A DNA stretch of 32,000 nucleotides, from the NCBI GenBank assembly GCA_016205145.1, contig JACQJH010000001.1, positions 540,001-572,000 of the forward strand, read 5' to 3'. Shown here piece by piece: positions 2,493 through 32,000 of this stretch. How positions within the stretch are numbered: position 1 is the stretch's first letter; every line of letters begins with the position of its first letter. This DNA is from Candidatus Iainarchaeum sp. GTDB lineage: Archaea; Iainarchaeota; Iainarchaeia; Iainarchaeales; JACQJH01. A program made the position numbers and the translations under genes. Under the pieces are notes generated by a model that ran no database searches, was not told where the DNA came from, and worked only from the letters and a program-made list of their open reading frames with translations.

Positions 2493-2837
2493 TCAGGCGC
2501 CTTTTTTTGTCGTCCTAATTTTGGGCAGATGTTCCTGCTTGAATAGTTCATCCAATGCGTGCCCTTGCGGGTGCGGAGAAAAGCGCCCGGTTTCATGTTC
2601 CCGCCATCGTTCAGGCCTGATGTGCGCAACATGTGCCAAAAGCAAATCCGCTATTTCCCTGCCATGTTCCGTCAAATGTTCCAAGTTGACGGTGCGGCTG
2701 CTTGGAACAATCGTGCCGTTGGGCCGCCTTAGGCCGAGGCCGACAACAAGCCGGCGTGCTTCTCCCCCGCCGAGCTGTGCGCCATGCCTCACTAAAAGGT
2801 GGTATTCTCCGGTGTGTTTTATTGGCTTTCCGGGCAT
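2493..2837 (-). CDS. hypothetical His-rich protein (114 aa), family not recognised
   Basis: Open frame co-directional with the SDR and bcp genes, 67 nt downstream of the SDR gene, with ordinary codon appearance. The overlapping plus-strand ORF 2521..2946 is Cys/Ser-rich and looks like an antisense artefact. Confidence 0.45.
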   Translation of the reverse strand: MPGKPIKHTGEYHLLVRHGAQLGGGEARRLVVGLGLRRPNGTIVPSSRTVNLEHLTEHGREIADLLLAHVAHIRPERWREHETGRFSPHPQGHALDELFKQEHLPKIRTTKKGA

Positions 2838-21789: not shown

Positions 21790-22125
21790 ATGGTTAAGCG
21801 GGGCCATGAAGTTGATTGGGTGGAATGCCTGAGTGAAACTGACACGCTTTTTGTGAGGCTTGTCTACGAACAGGATTCCGTTGAGCTGGTCGGGTTTGCA
21901 CTCGTTTACGTTGCCGAACTTGGCGGGAAATTCATTGAAGTGGCAAAATTTGACGCCGGCCCGCACGAACCTGTGAATGCCCATTATTATTTCAAAAACC
22001 CGCCTGAGAAACGGCATCTGAACGGGGAAAAAAGCATTGAAACCGTTGACGCGCTTGCCGGAATGTTAAGGGAAAAATGGGTGTTTTACCGGGCAAAATT
22101 CGTTGAGAATCACCCGTTTATTTAG
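21790..22125 (+). CDS. TumE/DUF6516-like small protein; copy 2 of 3
   Basis: MVKRGHEVDWVECLSETDTLFVRLVYEQDSVELVGFALVYVAELGGKFIEVAKFDAGPHEPVNAHYYF... Only this 3' third of track ORF 21391..22125 matches the paralogs. The 5' part of that ORF runs across the tRNA and a GC-rich structured region. Confidence 0.65.
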   Translation: MVKRGHEVDWVECLSETDTLFVRLVYEQDSVELVGFALVYVAELGGKFIEVAKFDAGPHEPVNAHYYFKNPPEKRHLNGEKSIETVDALAGMLREKWVFYRAKFVENHPFI

Positions 22126-22133
22126 ATAAATTT

Positions 22134-22167
22134 ATATAACCTAATAGGTTATATTTTATTGTGGTTT
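22134..22167 (+). promoter_or_regulatory. perfect palindrome ATATAACC-TAATA-GGTTATAT, then the 14-mer TTTTATTGTGGTTT, upstream of the wHTH gene
   Basis: The arms at 22134-22141 and 22147-22154 are exact reverse complements. The 14-mer at 22154-22167 is identical to 8599-8612. Confidence 0.4.
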
Positions 22168-22178
22168 CCTTGGAAAAT

Positions 22179-22529
22179 ATGAAAAAACTCGTAATCGTCG
22201 TGGGCGGGGACATGGGTCAGGACCTGCGCAAATTCATGAAAAATCCGGACAAAAAAGAGTTTGGCACACAAAGAGTTTACGTCAAAACCTTTGATGAGGT
22301 TCGAAGAGTGCTTTCCCCGCAGAAGCTTGACATGCTTTGCCGTTTCAGCAAAGGCGAATTTGGCAACCTGACCGTCGGCGAAACAGCAAAGCGACTGAAC
22401 CGCAAACAGGAAGCCATAAGCAGGGACGTTTCCGGCCTCGCCAGGCACGGCCTGATCAAAAAAACCAAAAAGGGCAGGCAGGTCCTGCTGAGCGCGCCGT
22501 TCAAGTCGATCGAGATTAGATTCTCATAA
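22179..22529 (+). CDS. winged-helix DNA-binding protein, partner of 21790..22125; copy 2 of 3
   Basis: MKKLVIVVGGDMGQDL...VYVKTFDEVRRVLSPQKLDMLCRFSKGEFGNLTVGETAKRLNRKQEAISRDVSGLARHGLIKKTKKGRQVLLSAPFKSIEIRF. It shares the '..F(D/E)...VLSP(K/Q)KLD(L/M)L......ETAK...RKQEA(I/V)SRD...L...GL(I/V)...K.G' layout with 22942..23340. Confidence 0.75.
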   Translation: MKKLVIVVGGDMGQDLRKFMKNPDKKEFGTQRVYVKTFDEVRRVLSPQKLDMLCRFSKGEFGNLTVGETAKRLNRKQEAISRDVSGLARHGLIKKTKKGRQVLLSAPFKSIEIRFS

Positions 22530-22588
22530 GTCAGTCAATTGACGAATTCTTCAGGCAGGATAAAAAGGCTTTCTTCACGCCATTTGTC

Positions 22589-22921
22589 ATGCCGGTTGAA
22601 ACACTCTTCAAACGCAGGGCGCTTTCTGAGAAAGATGCCATTTTCTACAGTTTCGATTTTGACACCGAAGCAAAAGAACTTGTCCGTTTTTGTGCAATTC
22701 AACTGCTGGAAATGCGCGGTAAAACGCACGAAGTGATAAAATTCGACGCCGCGCACGGAAAATGCCATGTTCACCGATACTGCAAGTTTGCGGAACACAA
22801 GGAAACAATCGGCATGAAAATTTCGCCCGAAACACTCAAGATTTGCAGAAAAGACATTGCGGAAAACTGGCAAAAGTATAAGGGCTGGTATCTAAAAAAG
22901 CGCCCTGAAACAAGCCTTTAA
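22589..22921 (+). CDS. TumE/DUF6516-like small protein; copy 3 of 3
   Basis: See 8615..8935. A 10-bp palindrome GTCAATTGAC (22534-22543) lies upstream. Confidence 0.65.
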   Translation: MPVETLFKRRALSEKDAIFYSFDFDTEAKELVRFCAIQLLEMRGKTHEVIKFDAAHGKCHVHRYCKFAEHKETIGMKISPETLKICRKDIAENWQKYKGWYLKKRPETSL

Positions 22922-22941
22922 TAACATTCGGGTTATACTAT

Positions 22942-23340
22942 ATGTCTGTCATGCAAAAATCCCAAGCCATAGAAAAGCCGAAAGAGGAGGAGCCCTTCAC
23001 CATAATCATCGGCGGCAATGAGGAAAAGGATTTGGACGATTTTTTCTCCGGAAAATCAACCGACCAGCCCAAGGACGTGCTTTATCTGGACACTTTCGAG
23101 CAACTGCACGAGCTTTTGTCGCCTAAAAAGCTTGATTTGCTGAAATGGCTCATGGACCTGCCGAAAAACCACAAGCCTTGCTCAGTTTCCGACACCGCAA
23201 AAAAAATCAAACGCAAGCAGGAAGCCGTGAGCCGCGATTTGAAACAACTGAAAAAGCTCGGCCTGGTCGAACTCAAAAAGGACGGGCAGAAAACCATTCC
23301 GACGCCGAAATTCAGGCGCATCGAAATAATCGTGAAATAA
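22942..23340 (+). CDS. winged-helix DNA-binding protein, partner of 22589..22921; copy 3 of 3
   Basis: ...VLYLDTFEQLHELLSPKKLDLLKWLMDLPKNHKPCSVSDTAKKIKRKQEAVSRDLKQLKKLGLVELKKDGQKTIPTPKFRRIEIIV. Confidence 0.75.
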   Translation: MSVMQKSQAIEKPKEEEPFTIIIGGNEEKDLDDFFSGKSTDQPKDVLYLDTFEQLHELLSPKKLDLLKWLMDLPKNHKPCSVSDTAKKIKRKQEAVSRDLKQLKKLGLVELKKDGQKTIPTPKFRRIEIIVK

Positions 23341-23412
23341 TCTTTCAAAAACCGCAAAAAGCCTTTTCCGGGGCAAATGGCGTTGAGAAATATATCAACA
23401 AATAAGTTCAAA

Positions 23413-23754
23413 ATGAAATACGACGACGAATACGATTACCTCTACTTTTACGACAGAGTAAACAGGTCATCTTCCGGCATAGAATGGGGCAACCTTGACA
23501 TTTCATACGACAAAAACGGAAACATCGTCGGGTTGTCAATTGAGGGCGCGTCCTCATTTCTGACAAACCTGACAAACAGGAAAATAACGAAAAACGCGCT
23601 GGCAAAAGCGGTTTCCGGCAGGCTCAAAATAAGGGAAAAAGCGGGAATCATTTACCTGACATTCATAATCAACCTCGAAAACGAGGCTCCGATAGAGGAC
23701 ACGATAACGGTCAAGTCCATAAACTACAAGTCGCCGCTGACCGAAACCGCCTGA
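23413..23754 (+). CDS. DUF2283-like small protein
   Basis: MKYDDEYDYLYFYDR......ISYDKNGNIVGLSIEGAS matches the 'YD.E.D.LY.....D..G.IVG(I/L)(E/S)I..AS' pattern I associate with DUF2283. The track ORF starts upstream at 23377. Confidence 0.55.
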   Translation: MKYDDEYDYLYFYDRVNRSSSGIEWGNLDISYDKNGNIVGLSIEGASSFLTNLTNRKITKNALAKAVSGRLKIREKAGIIYLTFIINLENEAPIEDTITVKSINYKSPLTETA

Positions 23755-23778
23755 ATATTTCCGGTGCAACCCTTAAAA

Positions 23779-23802
23779 GCACTATTTGCACTAAATTTAG
23801 TG
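23779..23802 (+). promoter_or_regulatory. operator-like element: GCACTA direct repeat and a perfect 14-bp palindrome CACTAAATTTAGTG, 12 nt upstream of the RHH-type gene
   Basis: GCACTA occurs at 23779-23784 and 23788-23793. The palindrome spans 23789-23802. A TATA-like CTTAAAAG at 23772-23779 lies just upstream. Confidence 0.4.
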
Positions 23803-23813
23803 TAAGTGGTGTC

Positions 23814-24050
23814 ATGGTTAATGCTACGCTGACGCTTTCGGTTCCGGAAAAGCTGAAAAAAGAAATCAGGGCCATGCCGGAAGTCAACTGGTCCGAGGAA
23901 ACAAGGCGTTTTCTCGAAGACCGCGTTGAAAGGCTGAAAGCCCTTCGGAAACTGGACGAACTTACAAAGAACAGCAGGCTAACGGAAGAGGATGCCATCA
24001 GAATCGGCCGCCAAATCAGAAAAGGCGTGGCCGAAAAAACCCTCAAATAG
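23814..24050 (+). CDS. VapB/CopG-like antitoxin-type protein, with no adjacent PIN or other toxin gene
   Basis: LTLSVPEKLKKEIRAMPEVNWSEETRRFLEDRVERLKALRKLDELTKNSRLTEEDAIRIGRQIRKG has the 'beta-strand, helix, NWSE' layout of archaeal VapB-type antitoxins. This is from memory and unverified. Confidence 0.55.
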   Translation: MVNATLTLSVPEKLKKEIRAMPEVNWSEETRRFLEDRVERLKALRKLDELTKNSRLTEEDAIRIGRQIRKGVAEKTLK

Positions 24051-24134
24051 CCTTTCGGATTGAACTAAAACGCGAAAAACAAAAAACCCGTTAACGCGAA
24101 ATTCAAAAGGATTGAGATAAAGATAATGTGACTG

Positions 24135-24404
24135 TCATTTGAATGACTTGTACCATCGCTCGTATTCTTTGTGCGTTTTGAAGCAATGCAGTATATAGCA
24201 AACCTCGTTTTCGATATTGTAAACGATTCTCGCCTGCCTTGTCACGTTTTCAGCAAAGAATGGCAAACCGTAATGCAAATGCCTTTTCATGGGCGCCGAA
24301 GCGATTTTTTCCGCATGCTTTATGAAAAATTCCCGCAGGCCGCCGTCCGCCTCATCCAATTCCCTTTCGGCCTGCCCGGAAAAAACGATTTCCATTAAAG
24401 TCAC
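24135..24404 (-). CDS. RelE/ParE-family type II toxin
   Basis: It is 89 aa, overlaps the upstream antitoxin stop by 4 nt, and its C-terminal ...RIVYNIENEVCYILHCFKTHKEYERWY is RelE/ParE-like. Confidence 0.7.
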   Translation of the reverse strand: MTLMEIVFSGQAERELDEADGGLREFFIKHAEKIASAPMKRHLHYGLPFFAENVTRQARIVYNIENEVCYILHCFKTHKEYERWYKSFK

Positions 24405-24637
24405 AGCCCGAATTTTTTCTTTATCTGGGCCAGGCTTTTCGTCTTCGCCTCGCCATCCCTTATTTCCTGCATTTCCAATTCAATGCCCTTGCTGACGAGT
24501 CTGACTTCTTCCTCTTCCAACTGCCGTTCATAGGCAAGCAAAGCCTGCCTGATGACCTCCGTCTGGTTGCCGGCATAACCCCTCTCAATTGCCTTGTTGA
24601 CAATCGCCTCATACGGAACGCCAAGATTCACATTCAT
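24401..24637 (-). CDS. ParD/RHH-type antitoxin
   Basis: MNVNLGVPYEAIVNKAIERGYAGNQTEVIRQALLAYERQLEEEE resembles ParD-like antitoxins. It is translationally coupled to the toxin. The track ORF extends to 24652. Confidence 0.65.
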   Translation of the reverse strand: MNVNLGVPYEAIVNKAIERGYAGNQTEVIRQALLAYERQLEEEEVRLVSKGIELEMQEIRDGEAKTKSLAQIKKKFGL

Positions 24638-25007
24638 GCAAACCACCCGCAAAAACCACGTGCAAACCGCACACGTTTAATATGCACTCAATACACATTC
24701 AACCTTATAAATATTGCGCATCAGGCATATGCCTGGTTGGGCATATAAACCGCCAAAACCCGCAAACAAGCCCGGCAACCAAAAACAAGCGGAGTCCCAA
24801 GCCCAAATGCGCCCAAGCCAAAAATGCCCGGAAAAACAAAAACCCGTGGTATACTGCATAGGCGGAGTATTTTCGGGGTGAGCTACTGCCAAAGCGCGGG
24901 AAACACTGCAAGGTCAGGAACCCAAAGCAAGCGAAGAATGCGGGTATTGTGGATGGAAAGGGTAACATAGATACTTTTATTAAAAATAAGGCAACTTAAA
25001 CTATAAA

Positions 25008-25211
25008 ATGGTTGAACAGAAAATTAACCTTTTTTGCCCCAAATGCGGCGAAAAAGTTGAAGTTCTTTGGGTTTATAACCCACCTCATGCCTATTTTGTT
25101 CCTGGCAGTAGAGCGGGGTCAGAAAAAAGAATAAAATTAAGTTCTAATATTGTTCAAGGAAATTGTTCTTGCGGGTATGTGTTCAAAGTGAAAGATTTGG
25201 ATGATTATTAA
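25008..25211 (+). CDS. small zinc-ribbon protein, first gene of the R-M cassette
   Basis: CPKCGEKVEV...NCSCGYVF carries CxxC...CxC. It is 67 aa, lies in the AT-rich block, and sits 16 nt upstream of the endonuclease ATG. Confidence 0.5.
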   Translation: MVEQKINLFCPKCGEKVEVLWVYNPPHAYFVPGSRAGSEKRIKLSSNIVQGNCSCGYVFKVKDLDDY

Positions 25212-25227
25212 TATTTGATTGGTATTT

Positions 25228-25965
25228 ATGGCTACTTGGCTTGATTCGCTAAAAGAAAGTTATGTCCTACTATTGACTACTCACCCTAGGAGTAATGTTA
25301 AGCTCGTACCGCCACATAGTTGGATTAGGAATAGATTGCAAGAGTTGTTGCCAAAGGATTTTGTGTGCTATTCTTTGGATAATGATGCGTCTAAAAGCAA
25401 AGAGAAGAAAATTAATGGCAAATTTTATGAAAAAACTGTTGATGTGGCCATTTTTAGAAAAGCAGTTCCTGTGGGCGCAGTTTCTTTTAAATTTGTGGCC
25501 TCTAATTATTCACAAAATTCTAATAATTACTTTGAAAACTTGATTGGCGAATGTTTCAATGTTCAATCAGAAGGAATCCCTTTTTGCCATGTTTTTGTAG
25601 TGCGCGATAAAATTCCATATTACAATAAAGATAGAGTAGTAACCAAATATGAAATTCTTACTGAACACAATTTAGATAAGTATCTTAGGTTGGCAAGTGC
25701 CGAATCTAATGATGCAGTTCCTTCTAAGTTGGCAATTACTATAATTAAAATTTCGGGGGATGAAGTTAGCGGGGATATTATTCACCCGATAGACTTCCAA
25801 ACACTATCTAATTCAAAAAAAGAGGCGATTAAAGGAAATATCTCAGTTGATTTTTCTGATTTTAAAATTTATCAAAAGGATATTAAAGAAAAACTTGAAT
25901 TGCTAAATATTAATAAAATTTTGAAAGAGTTTGTCGAAATAGTGGTCTCTAAAAACAAGCAATAG
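25228..25965 (+). CDS. putative type II restriction endonuclease (PD-(D/E)xK-like)
   Basis: It converges on and overlaps the methyltransferase gene by 17 nt. TVDVAIF-x10-GAVSFKFVASNYSQNSNNYFENLIGE looks like a D...SxK nuclease core. The assignment rests mainly on context. Confidence 0.6.
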   Translation: MATWLDSLKESYVLLLTTHPRSNVKLVPPHSWIRNRLQELLPKDFVCYSLDNDASKSKEKKINGKFYEKTVDVAIFRKAVPVGAVSFKFVASNYSQNSNNYFENLIGECFNVQSEGIPFCHVFVVRDKIPYYNKDRVVTKYEILTEHNLDKYLRLASAESNDAVPSKLAITIIKISGDEVSGDIIHPIDFQTLSNSKKEAIKGNISVDFSDFKIYQKDIKEKLELLNINKILKEFVEIVVSKNKQ

Positions 25966-27907
25966 TCAATTGCATATTTTGTTTTTTTGTACTATTTTTA
26001 GAATTAAAATATAAATTTTCCAAATAGTTGTCTATTTTATCTTTGCTCTGTTCTTCCGATAAGAATGCCAAGTCATGATTAGTAAGCCGCGGTATGCCAA
26101 AATTTTTTATGAATGTTTTTGCGAATGATTTGTAGCCGCCGCGATAGTCTTTGCTTGTTTTTTTTATGTAGTAATCCATAATGCTGGAATTTAGGATTTT
26201 TATAAGTACTTCTTTATCGCCTGAATAAAAAATAGAATATCCTGCATAAAATAAAGCGTCTTTTTTTGTACATAAAATGTAATTTGGGCTATTTGCAATA
26301 TTTGGCGTAATTATTTTTTCCCCAAATGAATTGTCAATGCCTTGTGATCGCCCATATATATACCAGGGGGTAATGTTATTTTTACCTTTGTCTCTTTTTG
26401 CAAGCTCGTCTTTTATTGATAGAAAATATTTGTAACAATTTGGAAATATTTTTGCTAATTCATGTTCTGGTAATGCCCGATACTTTTTTCCGATTTTTTG
26501 ATATGGGAAAATTATTCTTCTTTTATTTTTGATTATGTCCTGTTCATTTTTAACTATACTGGCTTTGATAATTTCTTTAGTTATGCCTTTTTCTATCACA
26601 TATTTTGTTTCATTTGAATATTTTATGTAACAATCTTTTTCTAGTTTTGAAGAATCTAATAAATACAAATTATCTTTTAGGGTTGCAATACCAACACTAA
26701 TCCTGGCAATTTTGCCAAGTGGTTCGCCTATTTCTTCTATTTTTTTTATTTTCATTTGGTCTTCGTGCATTAGTAGGTTCCATTTTTCTGGATTTAGTGC
26801 CTTGGTAACAATTGGTGAAAAAGTAAATGTGCCTTTTGTAAACTTATTTATGTTTTCGATTAGGGCGTAGTCAAAACTTTCTTTGTTTTTTTTATTTAGT
26901 ATAGTTATAGATGTGTAAGTGCTAACATCTTGGAAAATTTGTAAATGGTTAAAGTTTACTATCTGGCGGATTAAATTTTTTGTTTGTAAAAACTTTCTTA
27001 GTTGTTTTCCCGCGAGCGATGCAAAGTAGCTATTTGGGGTAATGTATCCTAATGAGCCATTTTTATTTAATAGTTGGATGCCTAACTCAAAAAATGGAAT
27101 AAATAGGTCGACATTTCCAGTACTTGCAGTGGCCCAGTTACTGCTTATTTTATTTCGCACGTTCTCTTGTAAATTTTGTATTCTAACATAAGGTGGATTC
27201 CCGATTATTGTATCGAATCCGCCATTTTTATCAAATACTTCTGGGAATTCCTTTTTCCAATTAAAAGTATTAGGGTCTAAGCTATCGCCCAGTTTTATAT
27301 TGAATATTATTTCTTCTTTGTCTTCGCCATTTTCTAGTGCTAACAATGACAATATTGTTTTTGTCCTATTTACATTGCTTTCCAATATGTCTACTCCAAA
27401 TATGTTATTTTCAATTATCTCGATAATTGGTTTCTTGCCTAATTTAGCTAATTTTTCTGTTGCCAATACCAAAAATGCACCGCTACCACAAGAACAATCG
27501 CAGACGATCAAATTATGTTTTTTAATCGTCTGATTATTTATGTAGTTAATTATGAATTCAGGGGTATAAAACGCCCCATTTAATTTACGATCTTTTGCTT
27601 CAATTAATAGTTCGAATATGCGTTCTATGTTTTTCAGGGTAATTTGGTTGGCATCATATGGGAGCTGTTTTTTTAGTTTTGAATAGTTTTCACTATCTAT
27701 TTTTTTTAGCATGTCGAGAATTAACTTGTTTTTCGGTTTTAGAATATTGTTTGCTTCTAAAAAAAAGGTTATTAGTCCGGCCTCTATTTGATCTATGGGG
27801 AAATTTTTTTGTAACTGAATTATGGAATTTGCGTTTATCAATTTGTCACGATGATTGTTCAGGTTTCTTTTTCTTATATTTGTTTTCGGAACCATATTTC
27901 CCCTCAT
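25949..27907 (-). CDS. N6-adenine DNA methyltransferase, gamma class (Eco57I/TaqI-like) with a large C-terminal target-recognition region
   Basis: GAFYTPEFII is motif X-like. VCDCSCGSGAFLV is AdoMet motif I. FDTIIGNPPYVRIQNL is catalytic motif IV (NPPY). Confidence 0.9.
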   Translation of the reverse strand: MRGNMVPKTNIRKRNLNNHRDKLINANSIIQLQKNFPIDQIEAGLITFFLEANNILKPKNKLILDMLKKIDSENYSKLKKQLPYDANQITLKNIERIFELLIEAKDRKLNGAFYTPEFIINYINNQTIKKHNLIVCDCSCGSGAFLVLATEKLAKLGKKPIIEIIENNIFGVDILESNVNRTKTILSLLALENGEDKEEIIFNIKLGDSLDPNTFNWKKEFPEVFDKNGGFDTIIGNPPYVRIQNLQENVRNKISSNWATASTGNVDLFIPFFELGIQLLNKNGSLGYITPNSYFASLAGKQLRKFLQTKNLIRQIVNFNHLQIFQDVSTYTSITILNKKNKESFDYALIENINKFTKGTFTFSPIVTKALNPEKWNLLMHEDQMKIKKIEEIGEPLGKIARISVGIATLKDNLYLLDSSKLEKDCYIKYSNETKYVIEKGITKEIIKASIVKNEQDIIKNKRRIIFPYQKIGKKYRALPEHELAKIFPNCYKYFLSIKDELAKRDKGKNNITPWYIYGRSQGIDNSFGEKIITPNIANSPNYILCTKKDALFYAGYSIFYSGDKEVLIKILNSSIMDYYIKKTSKDYRGGYKSFAKTFIKNFGIPRLTNHDLAFLSEEQSKDKIDNYLENLYFNSKNSTKKQNMQLTIACF

Positions 27908-28138
27908 TTTGAATTAAATATGTTTTAAACCATTAAAAAAATCATCGTCTGCCCCACCATAAACGCCAACGCCAGTTCCCCGAACCTTGCCGCTTTTTCC
28001 GTTTGCCCGTACGCGTCGAGGAGAAAGAGAATCCAAACCAAAACCCATTGAAAAGCCCAAATTTGGGAAACGAAAAACACCACAAAACCACTTTACATAT
28101 TTTATGCAATTTATGTAATTGTTTATTCTACAAAATCC

Positions 28139-28146
28139 TTTAAATA
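28139..28146 (+). promoter_or_regulatory. archaeal TATA box TTTAAATA ~31 nt upstream of the small ORF 28177..28320
   Basis: It is an exact TTTAWATA-type box. The 12-mer CCTTTAAATACT (28137-28148) is identical to 5393-5404. It is flanked by the partially palindromic repeats TGCAATTTATGTAATT and TGCATAATTTACATAATT. Confidence 0.45.
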
Positions 28147-28176
28147 CTTTGCATAATTTACATAATTTGACCGTTT

Positions 28177-28320
28177 ATGCCTGAAAAAAAGAAAACCGGC
28201 GCAGTAAGGCTCTCAATTTCAGTCTCGCCGGAAGAAAAGAAGTTCTTGGACGAAAACCAGTTCAGCCCGTCAAAACTGTTTCAATGGGCGCTGGGGCAAA
28301 AAGGGTTTGGAAAAAAATAG
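28177..28320 (+). CDS. 47-aa ribbon-helix-helix-like protein (below the ORF-track size cutoff)
   Basis: My translation is MPEKKKTGAVRLSISVSPEEKKFLDENQFSPSKLFQWALGQKGFGKK*. It has a beta-strand (RLSISVS) followed by two short helices, and a TATA box at the appropriate distance. Confidence 0.4.
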   Translation: MPEKKKTGAVRLSISVSPEEKKFLDENQFSPSKLFQWALGQKGFGKK

Positions 28321-28326
28321 TTTGTT

Positions 28327-29112
28327 TTATCGTGTGGGCTCGTTCCATCTTTCAGTAAATAAGTTTGTCATTGATGTGGCAATTTCGCTTATTTCCTTTA
28401 TAGTTGTATCTTTGTTCCCCAAGTCTTTAATGCTGCTTCCGATAGTCCAGCACTTGCCATCGCAAATAATAAATCTGTCATGAATTTTTTGGTTAATTTT
28501 GACCTCGATCTTTATCCCTAATTCTTTACCTAATTTTCCTTTATAACTTTCAAATTTACTTAAATCGTATATGTTGGAGGTTAAAATTTTTAATATCTTG
28601 ATTCTTCCTTTAATAGTGGCAAATGGAAAAAGCGTTTCAGGAGACACGTAAGAATCACATACCAAAATTTCTGGATCCTTTGAGTTTGTTATTGAATATA
28701 AAAATTCTTCGAATAATTTTATGGCGCTAAAATTCTGCCCAGATTTTATTATATAAACTGCCGATTTTCCAATTTGGCCCAATATTGTTCTTATTTTTTT
28801 CAATCCTTTACTTAGAAAATATAAACTTCTATTTTCCTCTTTAACAAAAGAATCTTTTTTTGCTTTGTGTAGTATTTTTCTAAAATTATCTTCTCTGCGT
28901 CCAAGATCCATAAAAAGATTTTTGCAGTCAGTATATTGTACCCCGGCGGTTTTGTTTTGATTTTCTATAAGATAAATAATCAGTAGGAGAACATCGGAAT
29001 CGGATAACACGTCATCTGCGATTAGCTTATTGTGGTATTTTTGAATTAATCCGGACATTTCGGGGGGAATTTCCAAATGAATTTTATTATTTTTTTTCGA
29101 TGTCATTTTCAA
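28327..29112 (-). CDS. unknown-function protein: N-terminal wHTH-like module + C-terminal PLD-fold (MIT_C-like 'D.Y...HDRFI') domain; third gene of the AT-rich operon
   Basis: The N-terminal module DSDVLLLIIYLIENQNKTAGVQYTDCKNLF...RSLYFLSKGLKKI is paralogous to modules in the two upstream genes. The C-terminal EILVCDSYVSPETLFPF...KIHDRFIICDGKCWTIGSSIKDLG resembles the DPY/HDR signature of non-catalytic PLD-like MIT_C domains. The start is uncertain: 29112, 29106 or 29058. Confidence 0.6.
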   Translation of the reverse strand: MKMTSKKNNKIHLEIPPEMSGLIQKYHNKLIADDVLSDSDVLLLIIYLIENQNKTAGVQYTDCKNLFMDLGRREDNFRKILHKAKKDSFVKEENRSLYFLSKGLKKIRTILGQIGKSAVYIIKSGQNFSAIKLFEEFLYSITNSKDPEILVCDSYVSPETLFPFATIKGRIKILKILTSNIYDLSKFESYKGKLGKELGIKIEVKINQKIHDRFIICDGKCWTIGSSIKDLGNKDTTIKEISEIATSMTNLFTERWNEPTR

Positions 29113-29485
29113 CGAATCCTTCGCCGCTATTAGTTAGTGTCCATGTTTTTAGTTCGTCCTTTTTTTCTTTGGCTTGCATCATGTGACCTTTTTCAACATT
29201 CTTGTCTAAAGTAGCGTTTATGTTGCTGGGCACTTTTTCTTTGGCGTCTCTAAAACCATTTTCTATATCTTTTGAATTAAAATTATTTGATTCGGTGTAG
29301 TTCTCTAGGTAATATCCTATGACTAATGCTTTTTGAACATCGCCTACTGCATTTTTTGAAAGAATAAATTCTTTTATGGACATTATTTTCTTTGACTTTG
29401 TTGGTCTGGTGTTCAATTGATCTTCTAGTTTTCGTATGCGTTCCTCGTGATTATCTAAGATGTGTGTTATTTGTTGAACCTCCAA
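29087..29485 (-). CDS. unknown-function protein: N-terminal coiled-coil + wHTH-like module; second gene of the AT-rich operon
   Basis: The coiled-coil is HILDNHEERIRKLEDQL. The wHTH-like module is DVQKALVIGYYLENYTESNNFNSKDIENGF...NINATLDKNVEKGHMMQAKEKKDELKTWTLTNSGEGFVE. Confidence 0.6.
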   Translation of the reverse strand: MEVQQITHILDNHEERIRKLEDQLNTRPTKSKKIMSIKEFILSKNAVGDVQKALVIGYYLENYTESNNFNSKDIENGFRDAKEKVPSNINATLDKNVEKGHMMQAKEKKDELKTWTLTNSGEGFVENDIEKK

Positions 29486-29489
29486 TTTT

Positions 29490-29927
29490 TCACCTGCCCC
29501 GTGGTTCTGATTTTTGTTCCTTCTTACTGTGTTTCCTATAAAGTGAATCCAATATGTCTTCGATTTGAAATGGGGAAATAGAATATTTTCCTTTTTTTTC
29601 TCTTTTTACCTGTTTCTGTTCGACTAACTCTTTTACTCTTGCCGCAATAATTTTTTTGTTTATGTGTGTAAAATCTGACAGTTCTTCGATTGTGACAATC
29701 GGGGCAATAGTTTTGTCCAATTTGTTTGCTAAAAAGCGGCAGACAAGTACCAAGCGGATATAGTCTGAATTTGTAAATGGGTTTTTTTCTAAAAGTACTG
29801 AGCCACTTTTATCGACTTTCGCAAACAGTAGTGCTCTGTCTACCAACCCAGGCAGTTTTTTTTCATTGTATGATTCTCGGTCAACAACAAACAATTCTTT
29901 TACTTCTTTCAAACTGAAACCAGCCAT
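29490..29927 (-). CDS. unknown-function protein with a C-terminal wHTH-like module; first gene of the AT-rich operon
   Basis: YIRLVLVCRFLANKLDKTIAPIVTIEELSDFTHINKKIIAARVKELVEQKQVKREKKGKYSISPFQIEDIL. There is a 4-nt gap to the next gene. Confidence 0.6.
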   Translation of the reverse strand: MAGFSLKEVKELFVVDRESYNEKKLPGLVDRALLFAKVDKSGSVLLEKNPFTNSDYIRLVLVCRFLANKLDKTIAPIVTIEELSDFTHINKKIIAARVKELVEQKQVKREKKGKYSISPFQIEDILDSLYRKHSKKEQKSEPRGR

Positions 29928-29965
29928 AAAAATCGTATACTGTAGTCGTAGTAACAGTTTAAAAA

Positions 29966-29999
29966 TATTCGTATCTAAAATTATGGTTTATTCGTATCT
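29966..29999 (-). promoter_or_regulatory. two 11-nt direct repeats TATTCGTATCT (plus-strand reading) spaced 23 nt, just upstream of a TATA-like TTTTTAAA and the operon start
   Basis: The repeats lie at 29966-29976 and 29989-29999. On the coding (minus) strand this reads AGATACGAATA-N12-AGATACGAATA-TTTTTAAAC, ~40 nt before ATG 29927. Confidence 0.4.
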
Positions 30000-30029
30000 C
30001 GATTAGTGCCTTTAGATTTCAATACGTCT

Positions 30030-30605
30030 TCACCATCTGTCTATCTCGGTTATCTTCAGCTCTTTTGCGCGCAAATAGATTTTTTCTGTCACAATTAGGT
30101 CGTGTTCCAAGTATGTTTTGATTTTGGCGTGGTTTCCGGCCCAGAATTCTTCTGCGACCATGCTTCCGTCCATTTCGTAGTCGTGGAAGCCGAGAAAGGC
30201 CGCGAATTCTTTGAGTGTTCCGCGCACGTTGCCGTATTTGTAGGCTGAAAGCTTTTCGCGCAAGTCGATTGTTTCCTTCAAGGTGAAGGGTTCGATTGCA
30301 ACGTTGTTGACAAAGCTTCTTGTGACGAGAAACGGCAAATCGAAGTTTTTGAGGTTGAAGCCCACTATTTTGAAGTTGCGATGCAGTTTTTTAAAAGCGC
30401 TGATTTCCTGCCAGAACGCTTCAAGCATGCTTTTTTCGCTTTCATCCATGAGAATGGTTGTCTTGGCGCCGTGCTTCAGGCCGATTGCGGCAACCTTGGA
30501 GTCGATGGGGTTCAACAGTTTTTTGCGCTCGGAGTCGTTTTCAACGCCCAAATACTGTTCCTTGTCGCAGGGAATTGTTTCAGTGTCCACGATTATGTAG
30601 TCCAT
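30030..30605 (-). CDS. DEDD-type 3'-5' exonuclease, PolB-exonuclease-like (RNase H fold)
   Basis: MDYIIVDTET is Exo I. IVGFNLKNFDLPFL is Exo II. YLEHDL is Exo III (YxxxD). The ~190-aa length fits the stand-alone 'predicted 3'-5' exonuclease related to PolB exo domain' family. Confidence 0.75.
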   Translation of the reverse strand: MDYIIVDTETIPCDKEQYLGVENDSERKKLLNPIDSKVAAIGLKHGAKTTILMDESEKSMLEAFWQEISAFKKLHRNFKIVGFNLKNFDLPFLVTRSFVNNVAIEPFTLKETIDLREKLSAYKYGNVRGTLKEFAAFLGFHDYEMDGSMVAEEFWAGNHAKIKTYLEHDLIVTEKIYLRAKELKITEIDRW

Positions 30606-30675
30606 AAGGATGGGTTTTGCGGAAAACTGCTTTTAAAGGGTTTCAGGGGAGGTTTCCCTTGATTTTGCCGCCGGT

Positions 30676-30954
30676 TTATTTTTTGTAGATGCTGTCGTGA
30701 TGGTCGTAGTCTTCCACTATGACTGTTTTCCGGTTTTCGTCGATTGAGTAGATTAAAACGAACGGGCCATGGGCATGAACTCTTCTCAGGCCGTGCATTG
30801 GCTTTTTCAGCGGCTTGAAATTGTATGGGTTTTCGAGTATTTGCCTAAGCTTTTTCTTGATTGCCTTTTCCTGTTCCGGGTCGCGTTTCGCGGCTTTTTC
30901 AAATGCCCTTTCAACGTGTTCAAGGACTTCAAGGCTGTATGGCAATAAAATCAT
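30676..30954 (-). CDS. RelE/ParE-family type II toxin (archaeal RelE-like)
   Basis: ...ILENPYNFKPLKKPMHGLRRVHAHGPFVLIYSIDENRKTVIVEDYDHHDSIYKK. A 4-nt overlap links it to the upstream antitoxin. It is a paralog of 31483..31761. Confidence 0.75.
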   Translation of the reverse strand: MILLPYSLEVLEHVERAFEKAAKRDPEQEKAIKKKLRQILENPYNFKPLKKPMHGLRRVHAHGPFVLIYSIDENRKTVIVEDYDHHDSIYKK

Positions 30955-31193
30955 CTTTTGCGCAGGTTTTCAAAGTATTCGTCAATGTTTTCAACCCGCA
31001 CGGCTTTTTCTTTTTTTGCCTTTTTCATCCTTTCGACGAAGTCCGGCCTGAGTTCTGGCTCAAGCACTTCTTTGTCGTATTCTTCGGCCAGCTTGTTGAT
31101 TGCCTCGCTCTTGTCGTTCAGGCCATACTTTGCCTTGACAATGTTGATTACGCGGTTGGCTCGGTCGTCAAGCTTTACAATGGCGGTAGGCAT
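30951..31193 (-). CDS. antitoxin-like protein (DUF2683-like), partner of 30676..30954
   Basis: VKLDDRANRVINIVKAKYGLNDKSEAINKLAEEY. It is a paralog of 31764..>32000. The family name is from memory. Confidence 0.6.
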   Translation of the reverse strand: MPTAIVKLDDRANRVINIVKAKYGLNDKSEAINKLAEEYDKEVLEPELRPDFVERMKKAKKEKAVRVENIDEYFENLRKR

Positions 31194-31227
31194 ATTATTC
31201 TCATATTAATGTGGCATTAATTCAATA

Positions 31228-31449
31228 TTAAAGCGTATTGTTTTGGCAAAATGCCAGTTCTTCCGGTTCGGCGTGCTTCACGTACAGTTCTGTTGCCTCT
31301 TTGAGGTTTGCCAAGGCCTTTTCAACGGTTTTGCCCTGGCTTACGACGCCCAATTCTATGCAGTGCGCCACGAAAAAGTCGTCTTCCTTTTCAACAACCG
31401 CGGTCAGCTTGAACATGCCTTGTCCCGATAGAACATTGTCGCGTTCCAT
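31228..31449 (-). CDS. HicB-fold (UPF0150) antitoxin-like protein, with no adjacent HicA
   Basis: FKLTAVVEKEDDFFVAHCIELGVVSQGKTVEKALANLKEATELYVKH is a typical HicB N-domain. Only ~33 nt of intergenic space lies on each side, so no hicA fits. Confidence 0.7.
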   Translation of the reverse strand: MERDNVLSGQGMFKLTAVVEKEDDFFVAHCIELGVVSQGKTVEKALANLKEATELYVKHAEPEELAFCQNNTL

Positions 31450-31482
31450 ATTTAAACGGTTTTTGGGACCCTTTCCATGGAT

Positions 31483-31761
31483 TCACTTGTATGCGTGGTC
31501 GTGGTGCGCGAATTTGTCGAAGAGTATGAAGTTTTCTTTTTTGAAGACTTTGAACAGCAGGACAAAGTGCTTTCCTATGTGGACGCGCTTGTATTCGCTC
31601 AGGCCGTGCCTGAGGTTTTTGTAGTGTTCTATTGCATATTCGTCTGAGGCGATTATTTCCCTGACTTTTTTGTTGAGCATTTCAGCGAGTTTTTTGTCCC
31701 TTTTCGCCAGGACCGGGATTTCGGCTTTCAGCTCGTCGGAAAAGTCGAAAGAAAACGCCAA
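31483..31761 (-). CDS. RelE/ParE-family type II toxin (paralog of 30676..30954)
   Basis: ...HYKNLRHGLSEYKRVHIGKHFVLLFKVFKKENFILFDKFAHHDHAYK. Confidence 0.75.
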   Translation of the reverse strand: MAFSFDFSDELKAEIPVLAKRDKKLAEMLNKKVREIIASDEYAIEHYKNLRHGLSEYKRVHIGKHFVLLFKVFKKENFILFDKFAHHDHAYK

Positions 31762-31763
31762 GT

Positions 31764-32000
31764 TTAATCGCCCCTGAATAGCCTGTCAAGTTCCTTGGCG
31801 GTCATTGACCTGAAACCGTATTTTTTGATGTGCCTTTCGCATGATTCTATGACTTCCTTGACGAACTCCTCTTTCGGCTCCCTTTCCACGAATTCGTCGC
31901 CGAACATTTCGGCAAACTTGCTGAGCGCCTGGCCCTTGTCCTTGAGGCCGTATTTTTCCTTTATCACGCCCAAAACCCTGTTTGAATAATCGCTTGACCG
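31764..32000 (-). CDS. DUF2683-like antitoxin, 5' end beyond the window
   Basis: The frame stays open upstream of the track's TTG start. Reading ...RSSDYSNRVLGVIKEKYGLKDKGQALSKFAEMF aligns with DDRANRVINIVKAKYGLNDKSEAINKLAEEY of 30951..31193, so the true start is past base 32000. Confidence 0.65.
   Translation of the reverse strand, partial: RSSDYSNRVLGVIKEKYGLKDKGQALSKFAEMFGDEFVEREPKEEFVKEVIESCERHIKKYGFRSMTAKELDRLFRGD

Follow-up and report, generated by a model that had tools for sequence, protein, structure and literature searches.

The use in defence of the phospholipase D (PLD)-superfamily domain class treated here is already known. In the 2025 analysis of Menshen, the PB-PLD1 effector (NsnC) was described with an MIT_C-like site of Asp/Glu plus HDR and was proposed to be enzymatic; the same domain was noted at the C-termini of some BrxL proteins, again as a proposed enzyme, and the question of nuclease activity was raised for human MITD1. 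A 2026 preprint on DruE reports two MITD1-like PLD domains forming a pocket (D1740, H1830, D1917-R1918-Y1919, R1951, H1999-x-R2001 and S2022) that is required for Druantia type III defence, with the D1740A substitution abolishing degradation of single-stranded DNA (ssDNA). A gene qualified as a PDC candidate by its position inside a BREX, DISARM or type I restriction–modification (R-M) locus. One PDC-S05 representative, the only one with demonstrated protection of E. coli, cut T7 and T5 plating about 1000-fold; a Virulence_RhuM domain was reported for it. TrmBL2 is an abundant archaeal chromatin protein. Apart from CRISPR and R-M, only a few defence systems have been recognised in archaea, and this is especially so in DPANN. 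Here, a cassette of three genes, g1, g2 and g3, was analysed in a stretch of 32,000 nucleotides of the DPANN archaeon Candidatus Iainarchaeum sp. (a Candidatus Diapherotrites metagenome-assembled genome; contig JACQJH010000001.1, assembly GCA_016205145.1), called the window below, to which all positions refer. The trio is conserved as a unit across archaea, and its third product carries an MIT_C-class PLD domain with a nearly invariant polar pocket. It would be a mobile conflict cassette, serving either as a defence against invaders or as a closely related module of the toxin/addiction type, a reading to which we give about an even chance.

Organization and Conservation of the Cassette

As a preliminary description of this DNA had claimed, the three genes are co-directional open reading frames (ORFs) on the minus strand (29490..29927, 29087..29485 and 28327..29112). 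Their products are identical to the NCBI proteins HY394_02895, HY394_02900 and HY394_02905, all annotated as hypothetical. The features of the cassette are the following:

29490..29927, minus strand: g1, ORF of 145 aa
29087..29485, minus strand: g2, ORF of 132 aa
28327..29106, minus strand: g3, ORF of 259 aa from the ATG at 29106, or 261 aa from the TTG at 29112 (28327..29112)
28783..29067, minus strand: g3 N-domain, residues ~16-110, β-hairpin and winged helix-turn-helix (wHTH) in the AlphaFold model
28339..28758, minus strand: g3 C-domain, residues ~119-258, PLD-superfamily fold of the MIT_C class
29958..30000, minus strand: putative promoter/operator of the cassette, read from the sequence

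The spacing also agrees with the earlier account, with a gap of 4 nt between g1 and g2 and an overlap of 26 nt between g2 and g3 if the TTG at 29112 is used. Since the homologues begin with MTSKK or MISKK, the ATG at 29106 is the more likely start of g3, with an overlap of 20 nt, and the NCBI call of 243 aa (P0001) looks too short. The 20-nt overlap of the g3 start with the g2 stop suggests translational coupling of the two genes; overlaps of 17-29 nt are also present in the related loci L001, L005, L072 and L074. An origin of the trio as an artefact or as chance ORFs was rejected, with more than 100 homologues for each gene. A word-indexed search returned 216 homologues of g2 and 140 of g3, the latter with 45-68% identity across archaeal phyla.

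That the three genes stay together in other genomes, as had been expected, was borne out in two samples of loci, from GTDB genomes and metagenomes, in which neighbouring genes were called by a simple ORF heuristic. Among the loci anchored on g3 with room for the neighbours, scanned with hidden Markov models (HMMs), g2 lay directly upstream in 23 of 27 and g1 was present in 22 of 27, the exceptions being rearranged or decayed. An independent sample of 80 metagenome loci was found with a g2 alignment, since the g1 alignments contained no stretch conserved enough for the scan, and g1 was present in 52 of 58 loci of this g2-anchored sample.

Full-length g3 was found in Aenigmatarchaeota, Nanoarchaeota, Woesearchaeota, Pacearchaeota, Parvarchaeota, Bathyarchaeia, Nitrososphaerota, Thermoprotei, Heimdall-/Freyarchaeota, Methanoperedens and Thermoplasmatota, and in a few bacteria (Ignavibacteria and Bacteroidota). 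The distribution is patchy, and the identity of 45-68% given above holds across these lineages, bacteria included. The GC content of the cassette was below that of its distant flanks in all 22 loci compared (mean difference -0.078), staying at ~0.28-0.36 even in hosts of 0.60-0.63 (0.29 vs 0.63 in L022). The neighbours of the cassettes are mostly housekeeping genes, such as those for ribosomal proteins, SecY, aminoacyl-tRNA synthetases and RNA polymerase. Because of the low GC content relative to the flanks and the housekeeping surroundings, the cassette behaves, by composition and context, as a small, recently transferred and horizontally mobile insertion.

Fold and Conserved Pocket of the g3 C-Domain

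The AlphaFold model of g3 has two domains and a predicted local distance difference test (pLDDT) score of 86.8. In Foldseek, the C-domain matched that of MITD1 (4a5z; E 1e-6, template modelling (TM) score 0.60, root-mean-square deviation (rmsd) 3.8 Å, 22% identity), other matches being FAM83A, PPK, PLD2 and Tdp1, all with probability 1.0. A profile of 60 g3 homologues also retrieved MITD1 from the PDB (E 7.6e-4), with CDsYIs aligned to EDPYIR and kIHDR to sIHDR. Model and profile match bear out the PLD-like MIT_C fold with a DPY/HDR signature proposed in the preliminary description. The Pfam family MIT_C (PF16565) scored 13.7 bits, under its gathering cut-off of 25, and PLDc_2 reached only E 0.021. 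In the searches against Pfam and NCBIfam, no family was reached at threshold by g1, g2 or g3.

The CDSY and HDRF motifs pointed out earlier are present, and CDSY and KIHDRF...GSSIKDLGNK are nearly invariant in the 60 homologues. Invariant residues are D153 (in CDSY), H211-D-R213, S227, K229 and G232-N233-K234. The motifs are also kept in bacterial relatives fused to ORF6N and in a sister PLD family described below. The classical HxK(x)4D(x)6GSxN motif is not present as such. In g3, H211-x-R213 is followed by G225 at +14 and S226/S227 at +15/+16, and the residue at +7 varies; the H-x-R, G and S of g3 sit where the HKD motif has H-x-K, G and S.

The earlier statement that no known defence-system signature could be recognised has to be revised for the C-domain. 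PADLOC has many HMMs for PDC-S05, most of which match an ORF6N or RhuM-N N-domain, and two of them gave matches here: PDLC04869 matched g3 residues 101-248 with E 3.7e-17 at profile positions 154-296 of 306, and PDLC04879 matched with E 5e-15 at positions 149-280 of 285, so only the C-terminal half of the profile is involved. Neither ORF6N nor Virulence_RhuM of Pfam matched g3 at E ≤ 1. The bacterial g3 relatives from GTDB are true PDC-S05 proteins of ~300 aa, with ORF6N (E 1e-29 to 1e-35) or RhuM-N.

The suggestion that the domain is non-catalytic has also become doubtful, as the D/HDR site is proposed to be enzymatic in PB-PLD1 and BrxL and MITD1-like domains form the nuclease site of DruE. 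With defence by DruE dependent on its pocket and ssDNA degradation lost in the D1740A mutant, a non-catalytic role should no longer be the default reading for MIT_C-class domains.

The Winged-Helix Proteins g1 and g2

Profile comparison with hhalign aligned g1 and g2 over 110 columns with a probability of 94.4% (E 8.5e-8), and on this comparison their true paralogy is demonstrable. The preliminary description had seen one module in all three proteins; this stood for g1 and g2, while the g3 N-domain gave only a weak profile match to them (E 0.006-0.007, hhalign probability ~6%). A triplicated module was rejected, with BLASTP and hhalign supporting the g1-g2 relation only. Modelling nevertheless makes the g3 N-domain a winged helix. 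The N-domain of the sister g3 family showed no hhalign match to g1, g2 or the N-domain of the window g3 (E 0.07-0.1).

The g2 model (AlphaFold pLDDT 84.7, predicted TM score (pTM) 0.70) shows a long N-terminal helix (residues 2-25) followed by a MarR/PadR-like winged helix. Its best Foldseek matches were the MarR-family dimers NadR, MepR and MftR (E ~3e-3 to 1e-2, probability 1.0), with PadR also found. As modelled, g2 has both the winged helix and the N-terminal dimerisation-type helix of a MarR/PadR-type fold. By paralogy to g2, a winged-helix fold is inferred for g1, which has weak wHTH similarity to AbiEi (PADLOC E 1.7e-4); a homologue of g1 in L001 is weakly similar to MarR_2. In PHROG, g1 had one weak match (E 3.7e-4), and g2 and g3 had none.

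At first sight g1 appeared to be an orphan beside a two-gene system, as the word-indexed search returned g1 alone. This was overturned by positional analysis and exhaustive phmmer. In other contigs a gene of ~140 aa is always present at the g1 position; 12 of 17 such counterparts matched g1 at E<1e-3 (best 34% identity, E 2e-25), and the counterparts are mutually homologous. Exhaustive phmmer gave 199 cluster representatives at E ≤ 1e-3, 60 of them at ≤ 1e-10. The median identity between loci decreases from g3 (52%) to g2 (41%) and g1 (27%), and by this measure g1 is the fastest-evolving gene of the cassette.

Further arrangements of the pair were observed. In P0330 a g1-g2 fusion is found, with the g2 HMM matching at residues 172-267 (E 5e-6), and g1 relatives of 220-300 aa with a second winged helix comprise P0330, P0245, P0252, P0256, P0262, P0274 and P0282. 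Four-gene cassettes with an extra g2-like gene upstream of g1 occur in L021 (664-1077) and L074 (6757-7176), where the g2 HMM gave E 9e-39 and 2e-44, and also in L075 and L079. The nearest relative of the window g1 is in L020 (35%), and the nearest relatives of the window g3 are in L009-L011 (65-66%; 48% for the g3 of L020). The nearest relatives of the two genes are thus in different loci, which suggests that g1 has recombined between cassettes.

Variation of the Third Gene

In the g2-anchored sample, the gene that follows g2 is not always of the window type. A window-type g3 was found in 10 loci and a sister PLD family in 34, the remainder being other genes. The sister proteins have 257-277 aa, a C-domain 24-30% identical to that of g3 with the motifs VDPYC, IHDRY and GHSxKDLGxK, and an unrelated N-domain. 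In L086, the third gene combines a wHTH-like segment with Hypoth_Ymh (Pfam E 1.5e-34) and matches Aga_HEPN (5e-19) and PD-Lambda-3_B (1.7e-16) in PADLOC; Ymh is a domain of the HEPN family.

The third genes of L126/L144 and of L128/L147 contain R-x4-6-H-like motifs (RNKRSIAH and LRNACGHP), with g1, g2 and the alternative third gene all present in L144. An assignment of these genes to HEPN was tried and found no Pfam or PADLOC support, so it stays a motif-based suggestion. The gene of L128 (445-1236) and L147 (354-1121) has a wHTH-like N-terminus and LDLRNACGHP near the C-terminus, and it matches phrog_27609, a phage family of unknown function (E 1.1e-11).

Toxin and defence systems show such a pattern, in which the partners stay constant and the enzymatic domain is exchanged. 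Extending this, g1-g2 might be the conserved centre of a modular immune system that is widespread, mainly in archaea; the fast-evolving paralogous pair would recognise invader DNA or an invader protein and license interchangeable DNA-tethered effectors, either MIT_C-class PLD nucleases of two families or a HEPN RNase. In one clade the system would be coupled physically, and perhaps also in function, to R-M systems as a second defensive line. We put this wider proposal forward tentatively, as possible and rather doubtful. If true, a defence family from DPANN and other uncultured archaea would be added.

Putative Promoter Region and the Addiction-Module Alternative

The sequence ahead of g1 contains a direct repeat of 12 nt, GAGATACGAATA (30000..29989) and TAGATACGAATA (29977..29966), spaced 23 nt start to start. 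A TATA-like element, TTTTTAAA (29965..29958), abuts the repeat, ~30 nt upstream of the g1 ATG. The repeat is longer than the best repeat in 30 of 30 shuffles of the same 110 nt (shuffle maximum 10). A GAGATAC core, noticed post hoc, is shared by the 110 nt upstream of g1 in the window (30000-29966), L020, L021 and L023, loci with a g1 identity of only 23-35%; it may represent a conserved half-site of the operator.

A compact, overlapping and probably autoregulated operon of this kind would also be expected of a selfish, toxin-antitoxin (TA)-like addiction module, with g3 as the toxin and g1/g2 as antitoxin or repressor, that keeps the island or the linked R-M genes stable without acting against viruses. 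The wHTH partners upstream of the effector, the weak likeness of g1 to AbiEi antitoxins, the variable effector position, as in TA families, the mobility and patchy distribution, and the TA pairs nearby in the window all fit such a module. On the other hand, no known TA family was matched by g1, g2 or g3, and three components with two paralogous partners are atypical for type II TA systems. Moreover, searches of IMG/VR (viral contigs), PLSDB (plasmids) and INPHARED (phages) gave no g3 relatives, and it is on plasmids and viruses that addiction modules are most common. A purely selfish module is considered improbable; it overlaps with the preferred conflict-cassette reading, since the boundary between TA and abortive infection is not sharp.

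Whole-Protein Structure and the Regulatory Alternative

When the whole g3 model was used as the Foldseek query, the best matches were eight TrmBL2 chains (E 1.7e-9 to 4e-8, probability 1.0), of the same domain order and ~260 aa, with alignments that extend over the g3 N-domain. With a TM score of 0.35, an rmsd of ~19 Å over the whole chain and 11-13% identity, the individual domains match and their arrangement differs. This resemblance supports an alternative in which the trio is a regulatory or chromatin module without an enzyme. The PLD-like domain of a TrmB/TrmBL2-like g3 would then serve for oligomerisation or ligand sensing (cf. the TrmB sugar sensors and MITD1), g1 and g2 would be accessory winged-helix regulators, and the set could silence or tune its island, including the adjacent R-M genes. 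The chromatin role and abundance of TrmBL2 in archaea agree with this, as do the winged helices of all three products, the operator-like repeats at the promoter, the position of an AT-rich cassette within AT-rich foreign DNA and the housekeeping neighbours of most cassettes.

No sequence link to TrmB was detected, however: neither PF01978 nor the TrmB C-terminal model of Pfam matched g3 at E ≤ 1, and TrmBL2 was not recovered in the PDB profile search at E ≤ 10. The low whole-chain similarity also contrasts with the C-domain, which is nearer to MIT_C (TM 0.60, 22% identity). In addition, the invariant polar pocket is common to the bacterial ORF6N fusions, and so strong a constraint, kept with unrelated N-domains, usually marks an active site or a ligand site. 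The replacement of the PLD domain by HEPN (Ymh) in L086 is hard to square with a structural chromatin protein. As the main alternative, a regulatory module is judged unlikely, if still to be reckoned with.

Restriction–Modification Systems beside the Cassette

Of 29 independent contexts in the window-type clade, ~10 have a complete R-M system next to the trio, with few exceptions directly downstream of g3. The adjoining systems are:

Window: Eco57I-like methyltransferase and putative endonuclease
L005 (L016 is of the same lineage): N6_N4 methyltransferase and BsaWI, behind an insertion sequence
L072 and L011: type III Res and Mod
L009: type III, beginning 2 nt past g3
L010: Eco57I-like and N6_N4
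L013: two N6_N4 methyltransferases
L076: N6_N4 and BsaWI, the methyltransferase start overlapping the g3 stop
L080: N6_N4 and HinP1I
L078: larger defence island, upstream of g3

Bulk scans covered ORFs on both sides: among 60 downstream ORFs, DNA methyltransferases were the commonest family (6, plus 2 ResIII), and 57 upstream ORFs contained a single C5-methyltransferase/NgoPII pair. The island of L078 (1-6105 and 13938-16576) includes an MmeI/Eco57I-type methyltransferase of 949 aa, a PLDc_2-ResIII-helicase protein of 992 aa, HsdM_N and HATPase_c_3 fragments, and SLFN_AlbA_2 and RlaP genes. This locus seems to have lost its g2, or to keep a decayed copy of it.

The defence-island context claimed in the preliminary description thus stood in part. 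It agrees with the frequency of R-M systems beside the window-type clade. It does not extend to the sister clade, where R-M genes, detected with a handful of seed proteins and one motif, were found in 0-1 of 19 loci, and R-M association as a general property of the cassette was rejected.

The trio might be an accessory of the neighbouring R-M system, either an expression controller or a second, modification-dependent nuclease, and not autonomous. R-M genes lie directly downstream in the window, L009, L010, L011, L013, L072, L076 and L080, in L076 with the overlap listed above, and in the window both R-M and trio are held in one low-GC block. The adjoining systems are, however, unrelated (Eco57I-like, N6_N4 with BsaWI, N6_N4 with HinP1I, type III Res/Mod), each is apparently complete alone, and R-M genes are not nearby in about two thirds of the window-type cassettes and nearly all of the sister clade. 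This dependent role is very improbable. Because R-M families vary even among close cassette relatives, co-location or cooperation is a better account of the arrangement than a composite of fixed make-up, and the repeated placement by unrelated R-M systems suggests co-mobilisation or cooperation.

Neighbouring Genes in the Window

The cassette lies in an unbroken low-GC block of ~5.1 kb, with a GC content of 0.30-0.35 vs ~0.52 in the rest of the window (range 0.23-0.42 vs 0.45-0.56 outside), in agreement with the AT-rich setting noted earlier. The block and the genes around the cassette are:

about 24950..30030: foreign low-GC block holding the R-M pair and the trio, assigned by composition
25949..27907, minus strand: N6-adenine DNA methyltransferase, type II gamma class, Eco57I/TaqI_C type, assigned by Pfam and PADLOC
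25219..25965, plus strand: ORF of 248 aa, putative cognate restriction endonuclease, assigned by position only
30030-30605, minus strand: stand-alone DNA_pol_B_exo2 3'-5' exonuclease (E 2.7e-17)
30676-31193, minus strand: ParE and DUF2683 pair, toxin-antitoxin genes
31228-31449, minus strand: HicB/DUF7387-like gene of the toxin-antitoxin run
31483-31973, minus strand: RelE/YhaV-like gene and 69-aa partner of the toxin-antitoxin run
22942-23340: HVO_A0114/ArsR-type winged-helix protein (E 7e-18)
23377-23754: DUF2283 protein

These assignments uphold the earlier account of the neighbours (an Eco57I/N6_Mtase-type methyltransferase, a DNA_pol_B_exo2 exonuclease, and ParE/DUF2683, HicB-like and RelE/YhaV-like pairs). 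The methyltransferase lies directly downstream of g3, co-directional with it and inside the block (Pfam Eco57I E 7e-40, N6_Mtase 1.4e-21, TaqI_C 2e-5; PADLOC MTase_II 3.7e-144). The 248-aa ORF is convergent with it, with a 17-nt overlap at the methyltransferase 3' end. No Pfam, PADLOC-relevant or PHROG family matched it, and its product is probably a type II restriction endonuclease not yet characterised.

In scans for tRNA genes and repeats around the block, neither a tRNA nor flanking direct repeats were found at its ends. In the spacer between methyltransferase and g3 (27908-28326, GC up to ~0.42), an ORF of 47 aa (MPEKKKTGAVRLSISVSPEEKKFLDENQFSPSKLFQWALGQKGFGKK) is encoded on the opposite strand at 28177-28320 (+). 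It matched no Pfam or PHROG family and could be a small ribbon-helix-helix-type R-M controller, or no gene at all. The region with the toxin-antitoxin run (30030-31973) has an intermediate GC content of ~0.45. Ahead of the AT-rich block, 22000-24900 is a second, moderately low-GC region (0.44-0.46 vs ~0.53), which contains the HVO_A0114/ArsR-type and DUF2283 genes listed above and may be an older island. The sole tRNA of the window is tRNA-Thr(TGT) at 2688-2785 (-); at 98 nt it is longer than usual, which suggests the presence of an archaeal intron.

Proposed Mechanism and Points against It

In the preferred reading of the trio as a conflict cassette, the three genes would be co-translated from one nearly leaderless, overlapping operon. 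The paralogues g1 and g2 most likely pair, bind the direct repeats of the promoter and autoregulate the operon, and a restraining or licensing effect on g3 is also probable; specificity or sensing would be the part of the fast-evolving g1. As the putative effector, g3 would be placed on DNA by its winged-helix N-domain, and its MIT_C-class domain, with an intact pocket of Asp, His-Asp-Arg, Ser-x-Lys and Asn-Lys, is predicted to cleave phosphodiester bonds, most likely of DNA. It probably acts as a homodimer, like single-domain PLD enzymes. The window-type cassette would travel with, or land beside, R-M systems. The outcome of the cassette may be antiviral defence, the exclusion of plasmids, or addiction.

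Several points weigh against this proposal. Regarding catalysis, g3 has HxR in place of the HxK(x)4D of classical enzymes, and no Asp is conserved at +7. TrmBL2, the structure that best matches the whole protein, is a non-enzymatic chromatin protein, and the closest solved relative, MITD1, is described as non-enzymatic and membrane-binding. Since MITD1 keeps the same residues, residue conservation alone is no proof of catalysis. The phage protection reported for PDC-S05 may not be transferable to g3, as the protective protein possibly has no MIT_C-type C-domain. Regarding the setting, about two thirds of the window-type cassettes have housekeeping neighbours only, the sister-clade cassettes lie outside defence islands among miscellaneous neighbours, and the viral, plasmid and phage collections searched contained no g3 relatives. 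As to the exchange of effectors, two of the three non-PLD types of third gene have motifs only, without HEPN profile support.

Comparison with Known Systems

The closest described family is PDC-S05 (PDLC04869 and PDLC04879). The C-terminal ~140 residues are homologous, with the motifs DxY, HDR[FY] and G[AS]SxKDxGNK, a DNA-binding domain precedes the C-domain in both, and the definition of PDC candidates inside R-M, BREX and DISARM loci echoes the R-M adjacency of the cassette. PDC-S05 is, in contrast, a single gene of ~300 aa, mostly bacterial, with an ORF6N/RhuM-N (KilA-N-like) N-domain, whereas g3 has a winged helix. It also comes with two partner genes that no PADLOC model matches and, preceded by g2 (23 of 27 loci) and g1 (22 of 27) in overlapping reading frames, departs from the single-gene pattern.

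As regards the partner proteins, the g2 fold match and the weak AbiEi and MarR_2 similarities on the g1 side recall MarR/PadR dimers, including wHTH domains of the AbiEi antitoxin type. They differ from these regulators in that g1 and g2 fall below the Pfam and NCBIfam thresholds, form a family pair of their own, occur together and stand upstream of a two-domain effector.

TrmBL2 and the TrmB family (PDB 5BPD, 5BQT, 5BPI and 5BOX) are archaeal, of similar size, and have a winged helix followed by a PLD-like α/β domain. Their difference from g3 lies in an undetectable sequence relationship, in the low structural similarity given above, and in the genomic setting, TrmBL2 being a chromosomal housekeeping gene of Thermococcales and not part of a mobile three-gene cassette. 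No TrmB-family C-domain is known to carry the D/HDR/SxK pocket.

The MIT_C domain of MITD1 (PF16565; PDB 4A5Z/2YMB) is the closest solved structure and, like g3, a single PLD-like domain without HxK. MITD1 is eukaryotic and has an N-terminal MIT domain that binds ESCRT-III, and it is described as a membrane-binding protein, whereas g3 adds the invariant SxKDxGNK segment and a DNA-binding N-domain. PADLOC models of DruE and BrxL gave no match to g3 at E ≤ 1. Compared by their descriptions, the defence effectors DruE, PB-PLD1 and some BrxL proteins have an MIT_C-like PLD domain with an Asp/Glu plus HDR site, and g3 has the Asp, His-Asp-Arg-[Phe/Tyr] and Ser that correspond to the DruE pocket. 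The fusions are different, namely to a helicase in DruE, which has two tandem copies, to an inactive PIN domain in NsnC and to AAA+/Lon in BrxL, in contrast to a single copy on a winged helix in g3.

In the libraries and literature covered, the three-gene cassette, the g1 and g2 families, the archaeal breadth, the effector variation and the clade-specific R-M coupling appear to be undescribed. The cassette occurs in at least ten archaeal lineages, as a system it is absent from PADLOC, and curated families include none of its proteins. As a defence or addiction module, if that is what it is, it would represent a system centred on archaea, in which a conserved core of two winged-helix proteins is combined with a variable effector tethered to DNA. 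With ~140 residues on a winged helix, g3 is the smallest known setting for the question of MIT_C-class PLD nucleases, answered so far for DruE only, and under the modular immune proposal it would offer a minimal single-domain model of how the PLD domains of MITD1, BrxL and DruE work as enzymes.

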